The translations under genes and the position numbers were made by a program. A DNA stretch of 64,000 nucleotides, from positions 1 to 64,000 of the forward strand of contig JABANN010000040.1 of NCBI GenBank assembly GCA_013115125.1, read 5' to 3'. Positions within the stretch are counted from its first letter, which is position 1. Every line of letters starts with the position of its first letter. The stretch is from Perkinsus olseni (taxonomy: Eukaryota). This document shows positions 6,901 through 21,861 of this stretch, piece after piece. The notes beneath the pieces are model-generated. The model was not told the origin of the DNA. It saw only the letters and a list, made by a program, of their open reading frames with translations, and did not search any database.

Positions 6901-7419
6901 TTATGTAACAGTGCGCCTTTGTAGTTCCTTGTGGGCATAGGGTTCGGTGCGCAGGTACAAGTGCCCGAAGGAAAGCCTGTGGTTCGCGGACTGGAGGCCC
7001 CATCCGAAGCAGCTTCTGTCTGAGAAGGAGGTTGAGGCCATCAGGAAGGACTACAAGCAGTACATTGCACAATACGAGGCTGGTGATCGGGACTTCGCTA
7101 GCCAACAGCGTGCGGCCGCGGTTGCAGACAGGAAGGCTATTCAGAACGACTTCAGGTGGGTGCCATGAGATTCTTTCGGAAGTGCCTAGTGGGACTATTG
7201 TAGATCTATGCTCAAGGACCTCAAGGAGTACCGTGCTGAGCTGTGCAAATCACAGGGTTGCGAGGACTGGGAGCAGGTGAGCTCACGGAGCCTTGGGTTA
7301 CGTGCGGACTGTGGGGTATTGTGTAGGGCTTCAAGCGTTTGGCTGCCTCGAGAGAGACTGTCACATTCACCGAGACCAGAGAGATCGATCAAGGAAAGCC
7401 GGTAATACTTTGCCAGTGA
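3962..7419 (+). CDS. EIF3B: Eukaryotic translation initiation factor 3 subunit B (multi-exon)
   Basis: RRM exon FQSTIIITNLPKVEERKLDKLKHVLAK; WD region VWTDSNVAWSPRGTFLVTFHAPGVNLWGGENF, ERYLMTWNG, IYWHPQGDY, DEHFMLNHVAWDPSGRY, WRPHPKQLLSEKEVEAIRKDYKQY; last exon ends KPVILCQ*. Many short GT-AG introns. Confidence 0.93.
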
Positions 7420-10601: not shown

Positions 10602-12926
10602 ATGTCAACCTCTACTGCTCAGCAGAGCAACAGCCCGGACTTCGCATCTACGCTGCAGTTCTACTCATCCTCGGCGCCGCCCGCCACGATGTCCAATCAA
10701 GATAAGATGGTCAACTTGGGCAAGCGGGCAGGTAGTAGCAGTAGAGGTGTATGGGAGCGCACTCAGAAGGCTGCTACGAATAAAGCGCGTTGGCACGTAC
10801 TGTTGTTTGGTGCGTCCGTTCGTTCCTTGATGGATGTAAGCGTTTACTGACTGATCGACTGAAAGCAGTGGTAGTAGTACTGATATGCAGCTCGCTTGTC
10901 GAATGGATCAGGCTTTGAGAAATCTCCCCTCGATGGGTGTGCCCACCTCTGTGTCTCATGAAGCTCATCCCGTTTTCGGAAGCGAGTTTGCCGTGGATCA
11001 TTCGAATGCTCGTTTACTTGAAGTTTTCGGCGTTCGTCGAAGAGCTTTCAACGAACACTAGAGGGTGGGCAAAAAGCACGCGGATATCAGTACCTTCTCG
11101 CTGTAGTAATTGCCAAGATCTCACTCAAGTAGTGTAAAGAACACTACGGAACCAGTTGGTAACTTTTGGGACGCCCGCTAGAGCGGAAGATTTTCTATCC
11201 AAGCTCTGGTATAATCAGGCGCTTTGCAGCTGCTATGAACTGGAGCTGTGCAGAGTAATTTTCACTCTCCTTTGTACCGTGTAGGTCAGAGCATTCAAAC
11301 GAATGCCCCAGTCGTCCTTGGCGCGATATCCAGTGCAATCGCTGGTGCTATGAACACCGTCAAGGATGCAGCATCGGGAGCCACAGGAGCATCAACCACT
11401 GCTAAAACTGATGACTTGGACAGTAATACATGGGGGATATTGGGATAACTCTCATCCGGCTCAGCGTCACGGGTAATAATATTTTTCACAACCCAACAAG
11501 GTGCAACAGAGCTGTAGTTTACTCGTTTCCATCACATTCGAGCTTTCGGCTCTGAGTGTCTGAGGTCTCGTGTATGTAGTGGCCCGTGGGGATCTTACCT
11601 ATCCCGCTGGACCGGCAGTACCCTGTTAGTTTGGGCAGTGGTCCTTCCGGTATTTAACTTGTGACGTACCTCACGTTGCCTTCAGCGTTCGATTTGGAGC
11701 TGGGAAAGGTCGATACCGCTGGCCAAACCTCTTCTGGGAGCTCGAGTGCATCGAATGGTCAAGGTAGTATGCCAGGCCCGGGGGTACCGCTGGATTGGTG
11801 CTTTGCCTTCAATTTTTGGGACATCCGGGAATGCCGGACAGACGGCGTGCTTTCGGACGGAGTGGCTGGCCGCTAGGTCTTATGGAATAGATTGTGCCTG
11901 TCAGCTGGGGAGAACGCAAGTTTGATCTCGCAGTGGACGAGCTCAGCCATGCAGTCCGGTACGCAGGCGTTCCAGGGGATGAAGCAGCAGGCGTCGGTGA
12001 GCACTCGGGCTAGTTGGGTTCATGTCCCACTAATCTTCGAGTATCCTGAGGTTAACAATGAAGCCATAGTTGGTGTCTGCACGTTCCGGTTCAGAGGCGG
12101 GTCTTGTCTCCTCAGGATATGGCATCAACTCGTGATACGATAGGGAAGTTCATCATGTTCTTCGCTGCGGGGTGCATATGCATGATGTTGGCCTTGACGT
12201 TCCTCCCGATGGTAGTAGAGGGTATCCCCATTCTCGGTAGCCGTACGAGTGAGTTTACTATCGAACTAGGGGATGTGTCAGCCAGGCGGCTTTGGGAATC
12301 TTGAGGTTGTGATGCTCCGCTCGGGAACAGTTTCACAGATTCAGCGGTTTGTAGTGTCGTGATGTTCGAGCTGCGTTAGAAGGCAGCCCAAGGATAGTTC
12401 TTTTTTCGCAGGTTGTGATCGCACCCCAGAAGTTCGCCCTCATGTTCACCGTGGGAAGCTGTTTGATTCTAATGAGCTTCTCGGTGTTGAAGGTAAGCAT
12501 CCCGTGTGTCATTTGCATTTACGTGTTGAGACTCAACCGTGTCGGTTCGTGACGGTTTCTTTCCCGTGCTTCAGGGCCACGCGGCATTCATAGCGCACAT
12601 CATGTCTCCGGAGAAACGACTCTTCACGGCTGGGTATGCAGCCTCGCTCGTCGCAACATTGTACGGTGCTCTGGTGAGCAAGTCGTACGTTCTCACTGTT
12701 GTTTTCTCCCTCATTCAAGTAGTGGCACTGGCATACTTCCTCGTCAGCTATATCCCGGGAGGTAGGAACAGCTCGGGCCAAGCCAGTCGTGCCAGCGAGC
12801 ACTGTCTCAGGCACAAGGGCCCTCACGATGATAGGGAGTGTGGCGGTTTCAACAGTGAAGAACTTGTTCTCTTCAAACGCCGGCGCTGCTACTTCAAGCT
12901 CACAGTCAAGCGGACTTCCGCTTTGA
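10602..12926 (+). CDS. SFT2: Got1/Sft2-family vesicle transport membrane protein with N-terminal low-complexity extension
   Basis: Four hydrophobic helices across exons: KFIMFFAAGCICMMLALTFLPM|VVIAPQKFALMFTVGSCLILMSFSVLK|GHAAFIAHIMSPEKRLFTAGYAASLVATLYGAL...VALAYFLVSYIPG|GTRAL. The 5' exon structure is less certain. Confidence 0.85.
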
Positions 12927-13194
12927 AGTGGGTATCTAGTTTGTTTTTGGTAATGATGAATAATGTACATTCTACTGAGGGGTCTCTAAAACTGCTGCGT
13001 TTCTACTACTACTGCCAAACTGCACACGGACAGGGAGAGGGTTCAGAGCGTTTGGTGGAGCTTATAGAAGATCATCGTGTAGCTTGGATGCCACCGACAC
13101 AGCAGTAACCGCTTAACCTACGAAGGGCGCTCATGTTTCGTGTTGTTAATTGGTCGGAGCAGCGGGGACGTGGATTTCAGTTGTTAGTCGGCTG

Positions 13195-16100
13195 ATGGCG
13201 GACGTCGCCGCACTACTTGAGTCAATAGAAAGGTCTCAGTCGGAGGTCGAAAGTGTGAAGTTACGGATAGCAAATGTAGCTGGTAGTACTGCAGGGAGAG
13301 GATGGGAGGCTTCGGGATGGATTGCATTTATACCTGCGTGACGGCCATGCGCTGATGACTTCCTTGTTGAGGTCTCACTGATCGCTCCTTGAAACCGCGT
13401 TGATTGAGGAAGCAGCGCACTAACTCCGTTTTCGTGCTCCTATTGTTGTGTGAACTGATCGCCTGCTCTGCGGCGTATCGGGAGACCCGCTGAGAAATGT
13501 ATCCTGAAGGTAAACTGAACCAAGTGAGGATGGCGGTTGCAACTTCGTCGGGGCCCTCCTCGGCCATGAAGGACGTTGGTACTAATCGGCTGAGAGATGA
13601 GATCGCTAAGGCCCGAGACGGGATTAAGCAGTAAGGAGACTGCGAGTTTGAGCTGAGCGGCGGTGGGAGGGGGTCTGGTTAGGTTCAAGAATTTGATCAA
13701 GGACGCTGCAGAGGCAGCCGCAGCTGAGGAGCAAACTACGATGGGATTCGGGGCGCTCAAAAAACGCATGGCGCACGATGACAAGACTAAGACACTGTAA
13801 TGACAGGCGAGTGTTGGTAGCCGGGATGGGTGATTGATAGGTATGAGAGAATCGGCGGCGACTTGACATTGGAAACGGCTGTGGAGATGGCATACGGCCG
13901 AGCGCTCCAGGACCCGAGGACAAGGTAGTGCTGGCTGACTCTGGTACGATCACTCGGTGTTCGAGCTTCCACATATCTGCCGAACCTTTGCCGGCTTCTT
14001 TGTGAACTCCGTCGTGGTCAGGGCCTACTTCGAGAAGAACCAGCGGAAGATGGCTTCTATTCGACAGAAAATGCACCAGGTGACAATGCTATGATAAGCC
14101 GCAGCCTGGGCGGTAGCATGCTTGGTATTTCAGTTCCTCTCGGGGTTGATGGGTGGACCGGTACTCTACGACGAGGAGAATGTGAAGCCCGCCCATTATC
14201 ACATGAATATTACTGACTACCACTTCGATGCGGTGAGTCCCTGTTTCGCAGTACTTGCAACTGCGGTAACCTCGATACGGGTGCAGGTGGTTGAACACTT
14301 CCAGAATGCCGTCGAGGAGCTGGGCGTTCACCCAAATGCCGTACTTGACGCTGTTACGGCTTTCCGGACGGTGATTGGACTGGCTGTCTGGGAGGAGATA
14401 GTGAAGGGATGTTCGATCAGGTTCGCAGGGAGATCACTACAGGTTGCACTGTGCGCATGGAAGTAGCACGGCGGAACATGGAGAAGGGGAAAGACCTTCT
14501 TTATAGGAAAGTTGGCGGTACTATCAGTATGAGCGCTGGAAATGGGAGGATCTTTGGCGCCTCAGAGGCGAAAGGCGTTGCTAAGTTTATGGAGAGGCTT
14601 TATGATCTCATCTGTATTGATACGCGCATAAAAAAGTTCTTCCAAGGCAAGGATGTTAACAAGTGGGTTGATGGGAAGTCGAAGGCGCGTCGGCCTGAAC
14701 TGAGTTCGTCGATTAGGGTCAAGAAAAGCCAGACTGTGTTCTTCACGGAAGTCCTGGGGGGTGACAATAAGTGGAAAGGTGGGGGCTGCTGAGATGATGA
14801 TAGATCGAAAAAATGTGAATTTTCAAGGTCGGTCCATACCAGAAATTCATAAGGGCATGAATGTCGATGACTACCACTTCGACTGTTTGCTCATGAACGC
14901 AGAGAAGGCTCTGTCGGGTCTTGGTGTGGAGGAAGACACCATAGACGAGGTGACACCAGCGGGGGGTGTTCTGTCACTTAGCGGGAGATTCCTGAGGGCA
15001 GGTACTGGTTGTGCTGGAAGGGTTCCGCGCGGAGGTACTGAATCGTAAGCGAGGGATTAACGCGGCACATAAGGTGGTAGACGGGAAGACAGTCCTTGAG
15101 CGACTGGGAGGAGAGATGAATATGGAGTCCCTCATCGAGACGATGTGAGCTCGGCCGTGCCAGCAGGTCGGAGTCGTTCTCGAAGGCTGAGGAATGCAGG
15201 TATTCTGGATGCCTAGTAGACCCAAGAGTCAAGTACTACTTCGCGCTGGAGCCGGCCAAGATGACGAATCTAAAGTCGAAGATGGTAACCCCGCCTTGCT
15301 ACTGGTGGTTATGAAGAAGTCTGTCGCAACAGGCACAAGTCATAGTTGGGCTCAGTGGCGGCCCGGCGGTCTACGACTTGAAGCGTCTTCGGCCCCTTCA
15401 TTACAACATGAATATCACCGACTACCACTTCGATACGATGCTCGAGAACCTTCGCGTGAGTTTTGTTCGGGACACAATCGCCGAGAATTGCGAACCGTCC
15501 ACCGCACCCGTGTTACGATGGTCGTCATGTGTGTAGGTGGCATGTGAGATGATGGAGCTCACTCCAGAGCTTACGCGGGATATTGCAGAAGTTGCCGCAT
15601 CTGTGCGACCGGACATCACGGCTGGGTGCACTGTTCGACTGGAGATCGCCCGGAAGAAGACTGAAAGCGCCGGTACTGTTGGGAGCGGACGAATTGACGG
15701 CGCTAACTCAGGACTGATCGATGCCTTCCGATATTTCGTCTTTCCTTTCCCACGGCCGAGTTACTGAGAGCGGCGTTCGAATCATGATCAAGTGTGACAG
15801 GCACGGACGGGCTCTTCTGCGTCCTCGGCGGAGATGAAGGGGTGATGAAGTTCATGGACAAGCTGTATGAGTCGGTACTACTGGACGATCGAATCCAGCA
15901 CTTCTTCTCGGGTGCTAAGCTGGACTCCGTGAAGAAGAGTCAAGGTAGATGCGGCACCCGTCGCTCCCACTCTTTCCGGTGATCATTATCACCAGTCGCG
16001 CTCTGAATGCCCCGTTTTATTATGAGCTGTGCTGGCTTTCGCTGATACTGTGTCTCTTCAGCGGAGTATGTGGCGCAGCTTTTCGGCTCCGCCCGGGAGT

Positions 16101-19100
16101 ACATGGGCAGAGAGCTCCCTCGGATACACGCGATGATCAGAATTGCCGACTTCCACTTCGACTGCTTTATCGAACAGTGCAGGAAGAATTTGGCGGCATG
16201 CGGGCTGGATTCGGACTCTGTGGACGAATGTAGTGAGGGCAGTGGTTGTCAAGATCAGTCCCGAGTTACCCACGCTAGTCGTTTCGATCCCGCCGTCCGA
16301 CTCGTATTGAGGCATCGTGCTCCTCTTAAAAAGTGCGAGCTCGGGAGTTTCGTATCGATTGATGTTTCAACGGCGTTCCTAGCTAGTGTAGCTTAGTGGC
16401 AGAGCGTCAGTTCTGTAACCCGAAGTTCTGCGATTCAATCCAACCAATCAGCTTCTATCGTTGAATTAATTCGTCGAAAATTTCGCTGAAAAGTCGGCAT
16501 TTCCTGTACACTGAAGGTTGGCGGTTCAATCCCGCCATTTGGAATTTGGTACCAAAGTTTGGAATCAGGCAATTTCCAGTATCAATTGACACTTTTCCGG
16601 CTTTGAGTGGTTTTTCAAGGCGGTTTAGCTTGATGGTAGAGTGTCAGTGTTGTAAACTGAAGGTCGGCGGTTCAATCCCGTCATCCGGCTTGTATTGCTC
16701 CATTGACTCATTCGAAACTTTTCGGAAAATTTGGAATCAGGCAAGTTTTAGTAACAATTGACACTTTTCCAGCTTCAGTTGGCATCTCAAGCCGGTTTAG
16801 CTTAGTGGTAGAGCGTCAGTCTTGTAAACTGAAGGTCGGCGGTTCAATTTCGCCATTCGGCTTGTATTGCTCCATTGACTCATTCGGAATTTTTCGGAAA
16901 ATTTGGGCTCAGGCAATCTTCAGTGTCAATTGACACTTTTCCAGCTTCAATTGGCATCTCAAGCCGGTTTAGCTTAGTGGTAGAGCTTCAGTGTTGTAAA
17001 CTTAAGGTCGGCGGACCAATCCCGCCATCCGGTTTGTATTGCTGCATTAACTCATTCAGAATTTTTCGGGAAATTTGGAATCAAGCAAGTTTTAGTAGCA
17101 ATTGACACTTTTCCAGCTTCGAAAGGGGTTTCAAGCCGGTTTAGCTTAGTGGTAGAGCGTCAGTCTTGTAAACTGAAGGTCGGCGGATCAATCCCGCCAT
17201 CCGGCTTATGCAGTAGCTTTTCAAACCGGTTTAGCTTAGTGGTAGAGCGTCAGTGTTGAAAACTGAAGGTCGGTGGATCAATCCCGCTATCCGGCTTATG
17301 CTGCATTGACTCATTCGGATTTTTTCGGAAGATTTGGAATAAAGCAAGTTTTAGTAGCAATTGACACTTTTCCAGCTTCGAATGGGGTTTCAAGCCGGTT
17401 TAGCTTAGTGGTAGAGCGTCAGTCTTGTAAACTGAAGGTCGGCGGTTCAATCCCGCCATCCGGCTTGTATTGCTTCATTAACTCATTCGGATTTTTTCGG
17501 AAAATTTGGGCTCAGGCAATCTTCAGTGTCAATTGACACTTTTCCGGCTTTGAGTGGCTATTCAAGTCGGTTTAGCTTAGTGGTAGAGCGTCAGTCTTGT
17601 AAACTGAAGGTCGGCGGTTCAATCCCGCTATCCGGCTTATGCTGCATTGACTAATTCGGAACTTTTCGGAAAATTTGGAATCAGGCGATTTTCAGTAGCA
17701 ATTGACACTTTTCCAGCTTCAACTGGCATCTCAAGCCGGTTTAGCTTGATGGTAGAGTGTCAGTGTTGTAAACTTAAGGTCGGCGGACCAATCCCGCCAT
17801 CCGGCTTGTATTGCTGCATTAACTCATTCAGAATTTTTCGGGAAATTTGGAGTCAAGCAAGTTTTAGTAGCAATTGACACTTTTCCAGCTTCGAAAAGGG
17901 TTTCAAGCCGGTTTAGCTTAGTGGTAGAGCGTCAGTCTTGTAAACTGAAGGTCGGCAGTTCAATTCCGCCACCCGGCTCGTATTGCTCCATCGACTCATT
18001 CGAAACTTTTCGGACAATTTGCAATCAGACAAGTTTTAGTAGCAATTGACACTTTTCCGGCTTTGAGTAGCTTTTCAAGCCGGTTTAGCTTAGTGGTAGA
18101 GCGTCAGCCTTGTAAACTGAAGGTCGGCGGATCAATCCCGCTATCTGGCTTATGCTGCATTGACTCATTCGGATTTTTTCGGAAGATTTGGGATAAAGCA
18201 AGTTTTAGTAGCAATTGACACTTTTGCAGCTTCGAGTGCGGTTTCAAGCCGGTTTAGCTTAGTGGTAGAGCGTCAGTCTTGTAAACTGTAGGTCGGCGGT
18301 TCAATCCCGCCATTCGGCTTATGCTGCATTGACTTGATGCATTGATTTAGGGTCTACGTAGTCTAAGAGTTTCTTCCTTAGGCACAGTGCTGCTTGAGAC
18401 AGCGCGGGCGTCCGTTGTGCACCCCGATCTGAGAAAGCACGACTCCAAGCGAGCGCAGCAGTTAGCAAATATGAAACCGATGTAATCTCATCTCCAAGCG
18501 AGCCTCTTTCTCTTTTTAGGGTATGGTTTTTTCTCTATTATCGCACTTTTGATGCGCGGTTCGAATCACGTAGGCTTTGGATGGGATACTGACTCATTAG
18601 GTACGATCGGATTGGAGGCGAGCCTGCACTTACTAAGCTTATTGACATAGTATACGACAAGGCACTTGTGGACACGAGTCTGCGTAGCTTTCTCGAGAAG
18701 AATAAAGCCAAGGTTTCTTCTATAAAGAAGAAGATGATTCAATTCCTGTGTGGAATAACCGGTGAGTGCGCTATCATAATCAGCGCTAGCTATCGACGTG
18801 CGCCCAATCCTATGTCTACCGTCAGGGGGTCCAACCAGCTATGATGCCAACGATATGCTACCGGCGCACTACAACATGAATATCACGGATTATCACTTCG
18901 ATGCAATGTTGATACTCATCCGAGAAACCTTCCTTCGGGAGCTGGATATGAAGCGAAGTAGGCACGGGAACTCCGGTTGCGCATATTCGGCCGTTGGCTC
19001 AGGCGATTCTCGGGAACTCATGAAACTGCTGCAGCCTGTGAGACCGATGGTTACTACAGGCTTTGGCGTGAGGAGAGAAATAGCGTTGAAGAATCTGTCA

Positions 19101-20647
19101 TTAGGCAAAGACCAGCTGTACAGGAAGTGAGTACTATCAGGCTCGGCTAGGCCGTCAAACGAAGCAGCTGAGCTATCGTCTCATCGGAGGTTCTTCCGTT
19201 TAGGCTGGGCGGCGAGAAGGGCATTCGGGAGACCCTGAATGTTCTGTACCAAATCGTGGCCACCGATGCTCGAATCAAGGAGTTCTTCGTCGAAAAGAAA
19301 ATCAAAAAGATAAAAGAGGGGCAAACGAAGTACTTCATCGAAATGTTTGGAGGGCCGAAGACGTCCACCGGCCGCGAGCTCTACGCCATCCACGAGAATC
19401 TTGGAGTCAATGATTTCCACTTCGATGCCTTCATGGCCGACCTCCAGCGGGCTATGCTCGGCACTGGCGTTGATGAGGTGATTATGGATGAGGTGCTGAT
19501 CACCGTAGAACAAGTACGACCTCAAGTGATGGGCAGGAAGACTGTCGAGGGTAGAGGGACCCTGGAGTGATTGGGCCCGACTGAGTATGTGTATTCAGTC
19601 GCCGGAGTGATGAAGAACGGCAAGACGCTGCTGATGCGGCTAGGTGGCGATATGAACCTCGAGTCTCTCGTCGAGAATATGTGAGTTGCCCTGAAAAGGC
19701 CGCCCTGCCTCGGGCGTGAGATTCTCAGGTACGATCGTGCCGTTGTGGACTCGAGGGTGCAATTCTTCTTTAATCGAGACAAGGCCACACAGAGGAGGAT
19801 CCGCATGAAAATGTAACGCTTTCTCTCCACTGTACCGTCGCACTAGCTGCATGTGAACCAGGTACCAGTATCTCAGTGGAGCCTTTGGTGGCCCGGTACA
19901 GTACGACCCTGCCAACTTGAAGCCAGCTCATTATAATATGAACATCACCAACTATCACTTTGATGCCATACTAGAGATCTTAACTAGAGCTGCCAAGGAG
20001 ATGAATATTGATGCTGACACGATGGACGATATGACCCAGGTCGGTGGCTGCTGGATGTAGTGTGCAGTACATCGCCATTATCATCGGCAGGTCGTGAACG
20101 GTATCCGCTCTGACGTTACCATCGGCTGCACGGTGAGAATGGAAGCTGCGAGAAAGAAGAACGAGACCGACGGCTTGGATCAGCTATTCATGAAACTGGG
20201 CGGCCACGAGGGAATCTCCACCTTCATCAGTCGCCTGTAGTCACATAGCGTGGGTGCTCAAGGGATGGGTTGAATGTCGGCAGATATGAATTCGTCGAGA
20301 GAGACAACAGAATCAATATGTTTTTTGAAGGCTCCAAGCTGGAGCTCATCAAGAAGGCCCAGGGCGACTACATCAGCATGCTGCTCGGAGGTGCTGTCTC
20401 CCGTACTTTTGGTGGACACAGCGGTGTCTCCTTAGGTTCGTCCGAGTACAACGGGAGAAGCCTCGAGGAAATCCACCAAACCCTCGCCATGACTGACTTC
20501 CACTTGGACTGCTTCCTCCAGTGCGTTCAGAAGGCCCTCAGGGACTGCGGCGCCGAGCAGGACACGACTGATGAAGTTGTCGTTCGACTGGAGTCTGTTC
20601 GGAAGGCGATCCTCCACGCTCACTACTCCGACGCCCAGTACAGCTGA
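13195..20647 (+). CDS. Polymeric group-I truncated (2/2) haemoglobin: short N-terminal helical region plus 8 tandem globin domains
   Basis: Spliced translation gives eight units, each with an LYxxLGG-like start (VGE in domain 2), Tyr B10, a D.R...FF-like CD region, a GG hinge (GS in domain 4), proximal His F8 and HFD/HLD. Starts: YERIGG (~13842), LYRKVG (~14500), LERLGG (~15095), LFCVLGG (~15812), YDRIGG (~18602), LYRK|LGG (~19115), LLMRLGG (~19628), LFMKLGG (~20184). Ends HAHYSDAQYS*. Confidence 0.92.
16382..16453 (+). pseudogene. Highly degenerate tRNA-Thr(TGT) copy
   Basis: GCTAGTGTAGCTTAGTGGCAGAGCGTCAGTTCTGTAACCCGAAG...TTCAATC; anticodon and T stems broken. Confidence 0.7.
16619..16690 (+). 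pseudogene. tRNA-Thr(TGT) copy 1, likely defective
   Basis: G2 mismatch in acceptor stem, D-loop AG changed to GA, G at position 32. Confidence 0.65.
16791..16862 (+). tRNA. tRNA-Thr(TGT) copy 2
   Basis: Cloverleaf with TCAGT-CTTGTAA-ACTGA; invariant C61 changed to T, so function is uncertain. Confidence 0.65.
16963..17034 (+). pseudogene. tRNA-Thr(TGT) copy 3, defective
   Basis: GGTTC changed to GGACC in the B box; anticodon stem mismatch (ACTTA). Confidence 0.75.
17135..17206 (+). tRNA. tRNA-Thr(TGT) copy 4
   Basis: Matches the array consensus except T54 to A (GGATCAA). Confidence 0.6.
17225..17296 (+). pseudogene. tRNA-Thr-derived copy 5 with anticodon TGA
   Basis: TCAGT-GTTGAAA-ACTGA; A1, T54 to A and T-stem wobbles. 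Confidence 0.7.
17394..17465 (+). tRNA. tRNA-Thr(TGT) copy 6 (array consensus)
   Basis: GCCGGTT TA GCTT AGTGGTA GAGC G TCAGT CTTGTAA ACTGA AGGTC GGCGG TTCAATC CCGCC ATCCGGC T; intact A and B boxes, T6 run ~25 nt downstream. Confidence 0.9.
17566..17637 (+). tRNA. tRNA-Thr(TGT) copy 7
   Basis: Consensus apart from two changes that give G-U wobbles. Confidence 0.8.
17735..17806 (+). pseudogene. tRNA-Thr(TGT) copy 8, defective
   Basis: GGACC B box, ACTTA anticodon stem, altered D loop. Confidence 0.75.
17907..17978 (+). tRNA. tRNA-Thr(TGT) copy 9
   Basis: Intact anticodon arm; one A-C mismatch in the T stem. Confidence 0.65.
18079..18150 (+). pseudogene. tRNA-Thr(TGT) copy 10, likely defective
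   Basis: C-A mismatch closing the anticodon stem, T54 to A, additional wobbles. Confidence 0.6.
18248..18319 (+). tRNA. tRNA-Thr(TGT) copy 11
   Basis: Intact boxes; T-T mismatch at the top of the anticodon stem. Confidence 0.7.
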
Positions 20648-20699: not shown

Positions 20700-21861
20700 A
20701 TATTGCTTCACACGCATGACCATTTTTGATGTGCATCTGATGTGCTCAGCGGCAGCCTTGAGGGTCGAGTTGAAAGCCATTCGGTTGAGCTCCCCTCAGC
20801 TTCCTTTCGCGGCATGGCCACTCCGGAAGGCAAGCGGCCACGATGTCTCGCCTGCCTCCTTGGGATGCTCCGCGGCAGTCGGTCGAGACTGCATGCTGTA
20901 GAAGTTAGGCTGACAGACGACGATGTCACGTTCAACAGCGGAGCGAAACAACAGAAGCGCGTCTCGAGGACGAGGCGGTTCAACACTAGAGCCGCCCAGA
21001 CCGACGAGTCTACTGTTGGCGGTGGAGGCGGCCGGAAGCTTTCTGTGGCCGTACCTGTGCCGTGGGCTGGGGACCTCCCGACCACACCGATGTCCTTCAG
21101 GAAGCAGAGGACTCCCAGTGGTGATGGATTCTGGGAGGCATCCCATGATCTGACGTAATTGTATCTTCGCAGGTTCATCATGTGGTGAGAATCCAGAGGG
21201 GGCTGGGAAGGCCGGAACCTCCGTAAGCTCCGGACCTGAGCTGCTGCAGGGAACGCGGTATCACGTTGTGTTCCTTGGAGACACCGATTCGGTAGTATGG
21301 ACGACATCGCTCGCTGCAGGGACTTGATGCAGAGAGCTCGAGCAGGCGAGTAGCTTTCTCAGGTTTCTTACTCATCATCGTCGTCAAGTGCTTTGTCATC
21401 AATTTCTTCGTTCCAGCGCTCGACATGTGAAGGCGAGGCGGAGGAGGTGGTGGTGGATGCTGCTGGTGATGACACGAGTCGCAGCGCGGTAAGCAGTCTC
21501 TCACGCCCGCAGCATCACCTAAGGGAGCTTCGCATAAGCCTGATACTTCCCTGGCCCCGTCCATTCGTCACCATCGTCACAATTCGACTCTAGTGTCGAT
21601 CTGAGCTCGGAAGCATCGGCATCTTGGTCCTCGTCTTCAGTGTGCTCCGCCCGAAGAGTCACAGGAAATCGTGGCGGCTCTACAGCGACGCCTTCGAGAG
21701 CGCGAAGCCCAGACTCGAGCGTTGATGCACCGCTGGCGGGCATACGTCCGAGGCGGTGCGGTCCATGATGTGGATCGGATAATTAGTATGAAGATAGAGT
21801 CCCCTTGTGGCCTTCGCCGGGGCGCTACAAGCTCATTAGCTCTCTCGTAGTCATCATGCAT
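20700..21861 (-). CDS. Hypothetical protein (multi-exon)
   Basis: Minus-strand exon-like stretches (ESGLRALEGVAVEPPRFPVTLRAEH; PRDALLLFRSAVERDIVVCQPNF) separated by plausible introns; model and ends uncertain. Confidence 0.35.

Follow-up and report, generated by a model that had tools for sequence, protein, structure and literature searches.

Evidence for a single chain of eight truncated-haemoglobin units of two alternating types in Perkinsus olseni

Introduction

To our knowledge, truncated haemoglobins have been studied almost solely as single units of 12-15 kDa. What is then to be made of a locus in which eight such units follow one another on the same strand: a single long chain, a precursor that is cut, or two neighbouring genes? 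The question is raised by a stretch of 64,000 nucleotides (nt) of Perkinsus olseni DNA (positions 1 to 64,000 of the forward strand of contig JABANN010000040.1, assembly GCA_013115125.1; hereafter "the window"), for which a first-pass annotation, made from the letters of the sequence, had proposed an eight-domain truncated haemoglobin, built by 1-2-4-8 duplication and possibly handling nitric oxide (NO) or oxygen (O2). The answer that we consider probable as a whole is a single nuclear gene encoding an eight-unit chain of two unit types engaged in NO/O2 handling; taken on its own, the structural claim (one gene, one eight-unit chain) is very probable, and the NO/O2 role is put forward as a tentative proposal, drawn from analogy with better-known haemoglobins.

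One spliced gene of 28 exons

Between ~13.8 and 20.6 kb of the plus strand, stop-to-stop open reading frames (ORFs) encode truncated-haemoglobin pieces, with the frame shifting from piece to piece. A gene model built by hand from the DNA joined them in 27 exons, with GT..AG at all introns and zero stops. Used as a homology query, the single-exon unit (19205-19549) retrieved with 100% identity a GenBank protein of P. olseni, "hypothetical protein FOL46_006286" (P0001 in our set), of 1473 residues. The hand-built model proved identical to residues 309-1473 of this protein except for an extra 45-nt in-frame intron (20391-20435) in unit 8, which was taken over from P0001 and accepted because unit 8 then matches units 2, 4 and 6 in length. 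As the 308 N-terminal residues of P0001 contain a Got1/Sft2 domain (PF04178) that comes from an upstream gene, and as the ATG at 13195, the first in-frame ATG following a stop, lines up with the start of many homologues, the product is therefore a protein of 1165 residues, encoded at 13195-20647 (+) by 28 exons separated by 27 introns and ending with the TGA at 20645-20647. It consists of a helical N-terminal extension of ~105 residues followed by eight group-I truncated-haemoglobin (2/2) units, and it is probably cytosolic. Two further splice choices, another donor within unit 2 at 14526/14527 and an intron of 39 nt at 15035-15073, were rejected on length match with sister units and on P0001.

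The limits given by the first-pass annotation thus coincide exactly with the ATG and TGA of the 28-exon model, and every string that it quoted is present in the spliced translation at the unit named. Its odd-unit and linker motifs occur four times each. Its even-unit motif exists as GR, four residues and IH; in its literal form, "GR...IH" with three positions between, it has zero matches.

Transcript data consisted of contigs of one public run (X1, whose "RNA?" label is a guess; 0.36 of the sampled words), which was treated as RNA-derived because its contigs show 15 GT..AG joints on the window, 14 of them in the globin gene and each of these in agreement with a model intron. In a single contig (depth 4.84), position 16229 is followed directly by 18382, with 2152 nt left out; a 100-nt exon (18382-18481) comes next, and 18481 is then joined to 18601. 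The large intron, announced as one of 2.15 kb and located precisely at 16230-18381, is therefore real, and both halves of the coding sequence lie on one RNA, units 4 and 5 being joined as anticipated in one transcript. The joining passes through the 100-nt bridge exon, which the first-pass annotation lacked. Paralogues and P. chesapeaki conserve its peptide, and because the exon encodes the H helix of unit 4, that unit is incomplete without it.

Eight units of the group-I 2/2 fold

Pfam recognized on P0001 the eight Bac_globin (PF01152) stretches that had been predicted, with 367.6 bits against a cut-off of 21 (E 1.7e-111), and on the separate ORF pieces it recognized the same family in 8 of 12, with E-values from 4.7e-12 to 0.23. 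When the six-frame ORFs of the whole window were searched with a hidden Markov model (HMM) of the domain, globin pieces (E < 0.1) were confined to the plus strand at 13821-20644, and the sole match outside the gene was a weak one at 6941-7165 (7.6 bits, E 0.4). Among PDB sequences, Tetrahymena pyriformis 3aq5 was the best match of an even unit (E 1.1e-12) as well as of an odd unit (E 4.5e-16), and for both unit types group-I chains ranked at the top and group-II chains far below. An AlphaFold2 model of the whole chain, computed from an alignment of 25 family members, reached a mean predicted local distance difference test score (pLDDT) of 82.7 and a predicted template modelling score (pTM) of 0.69. 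Searched with Foldseek, this predicted model retrieved 3aq5, 1dly, 1idr and 1dlw with target-normalised template modelling (TM) scores of 0.85-0.93, i.e. the 2-on-2 fold. No solved multi-unit 2/2 chain was found among the PDB sequence or Foldseek matches.

The assignment to group I is also consistent with residue patterns. A Trp at G8 marks truncated haemoglobins of groups II and III; in the eight units this position is Val, Leu, Met, Phe or Ile and never Trp. The Gly-Gly motifs of the AB and EF corners are each kept in seven of the eight units. The proposal of eight 2/2 domains in one spliced frame is hence borne out by Pfam, PDB sequence matches and Foldseek alike, with group I as the class.

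Two alternating types of predicted haem pocket

Pocket positions were mapped through the alignment with the Tetrahymena truncated haemoglobin, whose Tyr25, Gln46 and Gln50 we take to be B10, E7 and E11 in helix numbering. His F8 and Tyr B10 are present in 8/8 units of the window protein, exactly as the first-pass annotation had it, and Phe CD1 in 7/8; E7 is Ile, Val or Leu in all units. Beyond this common frame, two types alternate along the chain. Units 1, 3, 5 and 7 combine Lys E10 with Met E11, and units 2, 4, 6 and 8 combine a small residue at E10 with Gln E11, so that the distal pair Tyr B10/Gln E11 belongs to the even units and is absent from the odd ones. The alternation extends to overall similarity: within the window protein, units of the same type are 31-48% identical, and units of different type 18-26%. 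Of 36 single-unit proteins, 34 were scored; 27 were even-like and 0 odd-like, from which it follows that the odd type is the derived one and that, judged by sequence, the even unit is the type nearer to ordinary single-unit truncated haemoglobin N (trHbN).

An eight-unit family in Perkinsus and beyond

Searched with residues 309-1473 of P0001, public databases returned 35 proteins of 813-1588 residues and 31-55% identity (the query itself at 100%), comprising P. olseni paralogues, proteins of P. chesapeaki and P. marinus (Pmar_PMAR024802), MMETSP transcripts and metagenome records. According to our own domain HMM, 22 of the 179 proteins fetched contain exactly eight units. Two MMETSP records (P0168 and P0172) are labelled "type:complete", that is, whole eight-unit ORFs occur as single transcripts, and a protein of MMETSP0469, a sample assigned to Oxyrrhis marina in the available table of PMC9983209, has 8 Bac_globin stretches. 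The search for the same architecture that the first-pass annotation had suggested thus yielded eight-unit chains in Perkinsus paralogues, in an Oxyrrhis marina transcript and in metagenome proteins, at least 22 proteins in all. Weak Pfam labels on relatives (DUF7353, DUF7189, DnaI_N, Protoglobin) were discarded, being sub-threshold or overlapping globin units.

Three gene models of P. chesapeaki and P. olseni (P0155, P0156, P0006) contain 10-11 units with an internal gap sized like the N-terminal extension, and look like run-ons over tandem eight-unit genes. P0010, of 1882 residues, is a multi-unit 2/2 globin of another kind, which has 12 units and lacks the odd/even alternation. When a single unit was searched against the whole library, 946 matches were obtained at E up to 0.001, many of them multi-stretch and a twelve-unit protein among them; multi-unit 2/2 globins are therefore not rare in sequence space.

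Duplication history

In a FastTree phylogeny of the eight units of each of the 22 proteins with 13 single-unit outgroups, units grouped by position along the chain, with 13 label changes (minimum 8; mean of shuffled labels 135), and the eight-unit form therefore predates the radiation of the family. Deeper relations were sought with IQ-TREE on 9 of the 22 proteins, long-branched ones being omitted, with 8 outgroups. The expected period of two was recovered as an odd clade (support 100/99) and an even clade (98/91). For the period of four, the pairs 1+5, 3+7, 2+6 and 4+8 had been predicted: (2,6) was recovered at 99/93 and (3,7) at 98/95, (4,8) weakly at 81/45, and 1+5 was not recovered, the free tree placing unit 1 with (3,7) at 90/67. 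Nonetheless, holding 1+5 together gave a log-likelihood higher by 1.59 and was not rejected (p-value of the approximately unbiased test, p-AU, 0.537).

Other characters speak on the same pairs. Units 1 and 5 have in common a phase-2 intron just ahead of the first helix; units 3 and 7 have in common a phase-2 intron before Tyr B10, also found in unit 8, and a second intron whose positions are offset by a 1-nt slide; the large intron, in unit 4, falls in the same alignment column as the 52-nt intron of unit 2. In raw identity, unit 1 is nearest to unit 7, and unit 5 is the best same-type partner of unit 1 in only 2/22 proteins, the corresponding reciprocal counts being 17 and 19 for 2/6, 17 and 7 for 3/7, and 11 and 13 for 4/8, at a family mean inter-unit identity of 22-43%. 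When other multi-unit proteins were classed by odd and even units, with living two- and four-unit intermediates in view, patterns were mixed or unclassifiable, and the clean odd-even and odd-even-odd-even cases are probably fragments. As far as these sequence relations go, doubling from one to two, four and eight units is compatible with the pattern: the step from one to two is firm, that from four to eight is well supported for two pairs, and the other two pairs are compatible with it.

One chain, cut, shortened or divided

The stretches between the eight units are of two kinds. The odd-to-even linkers, which carry the linker motif with its Gly and Arg invariant, are 0.47-0.65 identical to the window protein across the family with at most 0.8 inserted residues, a conservation on par with that of the globin cores, and are long helices in the AlphaFold2 model (residues 218-237, 483-502, 739-772 and 1017-1038). 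In the even-to-odd linkers, identity falls to 0.28-0.43 and as many as 12 residues are inserted. Four odd+even hetero-didomains, each joined internally by a conserved helix of fixed length, are the best reading of the chain. A Cys of this helix is kept after units 1, 3 and 7 (within residues 224-232, 489-497 and 1023-1031); after unit 5 it is not conserved, and the window protein has Phe there.

The even-to-odd linkers leave room for a polyprotein precursor, which would be processed after its synthesis to give didomains or single units acting as ordinary small haemoglobins. Polyproteins are common in dinoflagellates, the sister lineage of Perkinsus. This closeness and the eight-unit relative in the Oxyrrhis transcriptome would fit such processing, as would the even-to-odd linkers: of all parts of the chain they show the least conservation, the most indels and the lowest pLDDT (blocks of 66 and 52), and they could be cleavage or hinge sites. 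On the other side, the units are merely 18-48% identical and each position forms a conserved clade, unlike the near-identical repeats expected of a dosage-type precursor; the odd-to-even linker is a conserved helix; and the pTM over the 1165 residues suggests, at the level of a model, a defined overall arrangement. We regard the polyprotein as unlikely, and the uncut eight-unit chain as the better reading.

Less likely still is that, alongside the eight-unit mRNA, a shorter protein is made and is the main form, ending after unit 5 or unit 4 through regulated retention of the 77-nt intron (19127-19203) or through ends in the large intron. Another contig of run X1 (record 4) is unbroken over 19003-19245 and retains the 77-nt intron with its two upstream introns spliced out; the retained stretch places an in-frame TGA just after unit 5, and some RNA would therefore encode a truncated product. 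This contig reflects either intron retention or an unfinished transcript. The large intron, for its part, houses a tandem array of transfer RNA (tRNA) genes (11 Rfam matches of 44-70 bits, oriented like the host gene; 9 ARAGORN calls, of which 8 are Thr(UGU) and the ninth has the anticodon UGA), over parts of which depth bins reach ~27, above exon depth, and such same-strand matches could disturb elongation. Against a main product so shortened, units 6-8 retain all pocket residues and are conserved across the 22 proteins, the two complete MMETSP records carry eight units in single transcripts, and contigs, which lose rare variants, do not allow abundances to be derived.

Finally, two four-unit genes, with transcripts stopping after unit 4 and restarting before unit 5, could be suspected from halves lying 2.15 kb apart, from a short ATG-containing stretch in the bridge exon and from the shifted frame past the donor at 16230, which reads a helix-like peptide and a stop, but this very improbable reading is largely refuted by the single contig bearing both the 16229/18382 and 18481/18601 joints, by the loss of the H helix from unit 4 if the bridge exon is dropped, by the conservation of the bridge peptide, by the failure of the domain HMM to match the post-donor peptide and by 22 relatives with eight units per chain. 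The peptide in question (16230-16310, +) resembles the C-terminus of unit 8, probably by chance. A relic terminal exon, left by the fusion of two four-unit genes through a new splice, was considered and dropped because the domain HMM misses this ORF and because the eight-unit form is old.

Several observations weigh against one eight-unit chain with eight working haem pockets. The join over the large intron is provided by one contig of one run, at a depth of ~5 and with an RNA label that is a guess; 13 of the 27 introns are without an RNA joint among the X1 contigs, none of which covers the entire gene, and the retained 77-nt intron described above belongs to the same side. The alignment beneath the AlphaFold2 model is shallow (25 rows). 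Among the units, unit 5 has Leu at CD1, unit 2 has Gly-Glu for the AB motif and unit 4 Gly-Ser for the EF motif. Across the family, His F8 is found in 22/22 proteins in units 1-4, 7 and 8, in 19/22 in unit 5 and in 18/22 in unit 6, being absent from unit 5 in 3/22 relatives and gapped in unit 6 in 4/22; haem therefore need not be bound by every unit across the family.

A proposed role in NO and O2 handling

Tyr B10 and Gln E11 stabilise bound O2 in trHbN-type NO dioxygenases such as M. tuberculosis HbN and the Tetrahymena protein, and in Chlamydomonas THB1 Lys E10 ligates the haem iron. By analogy, each unit of the window protein would bind one haem b, giving eight haems per chain. Reaction with O2 and NO would fall to the even units; in the odd units Lys E10 may supply a sixth haem ligand, with gated ligand binding, and these units may act as a redox partner or as a store that exchanges ligand more slowly. 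The parasite lives in haemocytes and hypoxic tissue of molluscs, where the protein could in this way buffer O2 and detoxify NO. Oysters and clams die of infection by Perkinsus species, and the haemocyte interior is low in O2, with reactive nitrogen and oxygen species to be expected. Trophozoites inhabit haemocytes according to the available text of PMC6642578, and NO or O2 handling is therefore plausible. A bolder version, which we think improbable, is a division of labour in which odd, six-coordinate, cytochrome-like haems would pass electrons down a rigid chain of eight haems to the even units, where O2 would be bound and NO turned over. This would make a self-contained, self-re-reducing NO dioxygenase or O2 buffer that the conserved N-terminal helices would assemble into a larger particle.

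Eight predicted haem sites with two alternating pocket types are conserved across Perkinsus paralogues and present in the transcriptome of a basal dinoflagellate. The conservation of the eight-unit chain suggests that the linkage itself is functional, be it by allowing cooperativity, by relaying electrons or by packing haem densely in one place. A multi-haem NO/O2 handler would be a plausible fitness factor for Perkinsus and is directly testable.

Gene structure and neighbourhood

The features of the locus are collected in Table 1. Upstream, a Got1/Sft2-like gene occupies window positions ~12300-13123 (+), and a very deep contig (~3057) stops at 13123, followed by adapter-like letters. The two genes probably give separate transcripts, and the GenBank model fuses them wrongly; the locus hence corrects a public gene model, in addition to providing an example of a tRNA gene array within a spliced intron. 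Downstream of the globin stop lies a further spliced gene with a joint at 21119/21172, and another P. olseni gene model (P0005) extends units 6-8 into ORFs at 20730-21360 (+) of the window.

Table 1. Exons and other features of the eight-unit globin gene (window positions), with the evidence for each
Feature	Position	Strand	Evidence
Whole coding span	13195-20647	+	28 exons, 1165 residues; 14/27 introns seen as GT..AG joints
Exon 1, start ATG, N-terminal helix	13195-13282	+	Joint 13282/13510; start aligned with homologues
Exon 2, N-terminal extension	13510-13630	+	Joints both sides
Exon 3, N-terminal extension up to unit 1	13683-13796	+	Joints both sides
Exon 4, unit 1 (A-B helices, Tyr B10)	13841-13924	+	Joints both sides
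Exon 5, unit 1 (E helix)	14022-14079	+	Joints both sides
Exon 6, unit 1 (His F8 motif)	14134-14232	+	Acceptor joint; donor from GT and frame, as P0001
Exon 7, unit 1 (G-H helices)	14287-14370	+	Donor joint; hand model and P0001
Exon 8, conserved odd-to-even linker helix and unit 2 start	14421-14517	+	Acceptor joint; hand model and P0001
Exon 9, unit 2	14566-14662	+	GT..AG, frame, P0001
Exon 10, unit 2	14717-14778	+	Hand model and P0001
Exon 11, unit 2 (His F8)	14828-14949	+	Hand model and P0001
Exon 12, unit 2 end, linker, unit 3 start	15002-15144	+	Donor joint; hand model and P0001
Exon 13, unit 3	15200-15284	+	Joints both sides
Exon 14, unit 3 (His F8)	15333-15455	+	Joints both sides
Exon 15, unit 3 end and linker helix	15537-15672	+	Acceptor joint; hand model and P0001
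Exon 16, unit 4	15801-15944	+	Hand model and P0001
Exon 17, unit 4 (His F8, G helix), large-intron donor	16062-16229	+	Joint 16229/18382
Large intron, 2152 nt, splits last helix of unit 4	16230-18381	+	GT..AG joint, one contig, depth 4.84
Tandem array in large intron, 11 tRNA matches (Thr-UGU type), 172-bp period	16619-18319	+	Rfam, ARAGORN, TRF
Exon 18, bridge exon: unit 4 H helix and linker to unit 5	18382-18481	+	Joints both sides, same contig; conserved in paralogues
Exon 19, unit 5	18601-18761	+	Joints both sides
Exon 20, unit 5 (His F8)	18826-18957	+	Joints both sides
Exon 21, unit 5 end, linker helix, unit 6 start	19003-19126	+	Acceptor joint; donor from sequence and P0001
77-nt intron with in-frame TGA, retained in one RNA-like contig	19127-19203	+	Contig unbroken 19003-19245
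Exon 22, nearly all of unit 6	19204-19550	+	Pfam Bac_globin E 4.7e-12; donor joint
Exon 23, unit 7 start	19599-19680	+	Acceptor joint
Exon 24, unit 7	19729-19812	+	Hand model and P0001
Exon 25, unit 7 (His F8)	19862-20039	+	Pfam of ORF pieces, hand model, P0001
Exon 26, linker helix and unit 8 start	20091-20236	+	Hand model and P0001
Exon 27, unit 8	20284-20390	+	P0001
Exon 28, unit 8 (His F8) and stop TGA 20645-20647	20436-20647	+	Pfam of ORF pieces, P0001

Comparison with known systems

Close counterparts are the eight-unit relatives in databases, including P. chesapeaki FOL47_008915 and FOL47_010479, which have the same N-terminal extension, eight positions and odd/even alternation; they differ in being unnamed or "hypothetical", or automatically labelled "truncated hemoglobin YjbI", and several of their models are run-ons or fragments.

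Single-unit group-I truncated haemoglobins of known structure come from Tetrahymena pyriformis (3AQ5), Chlamydomonas eugametos (1DLY), C. reinhardtii (THB1, 4XDI), M. tuberculosis (HbN, 1IDR) and Paramecium (1DLW). The units of the window protein resemble them in sequence (E 1e-12 to 4.5e-16) and in modelled fold (root-mean-square deviation ~1-2 A at the TM scores given above), and have in common with them His F8, Tyr B10, Phe CD1 in seven units and Gln E11 in the even units. In contrast to these proteins, the window protein has eight units per chain, Met E11 with Lys E10 and a conserved extra helix after helix H in the odd units, and a hydrophobic residue (Ile, Val or Leu) and not Gln at E7.

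Multi-unit 2/2 globins have also been described before, and the first-pass view of a multi-haem chain as a departure from single-domain truncated haemoglobins has to be given up in this respect. Hade, Kaur, Chakraborti and Dikshit reportedly described multi-unit truncated haemoglobins in silico (said to be IUBMB Life 2017;69:479), a work that reaches us through a citing review. In its available text, that review (PMC7475203) speaks of tandem T1 2/2 globin units in "ciliated protozoan parasites". As far as this wording goes, the likeness lies in tandem T1 2/2 units within one protein of a protozoan parasite, and the difference in the host, Perkinsus not being a ciliate. Literature searches among open papers for globins and truncated haemoglobins of Perkinsus gave none that deals with a globin of this genus, and those for multi-domain globins or multi-unit truncated haemoglobins had no matches. 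Because of the 2017 in silico report, the window protein is filed here as a further case of a known multi-unit class; with this protein and many eight-unit relatives already in public databases, both the sequence and the class of architecture were on record there before, and the protein itself is uncharacterised.

A further parallel is offered by the concatenated 3/3 globin chains of invertebrates, such as the nine-domain haemoglobin of Artemia, which are extracellular O2 carriers. Both kinds of chain place many haem units, predicted ones in the case of Perkinsus, on one polypeptide through repeated duplication, the one in animals with the 3/3 fold and outside the cell, the other in a protist with the 2/2 fold.

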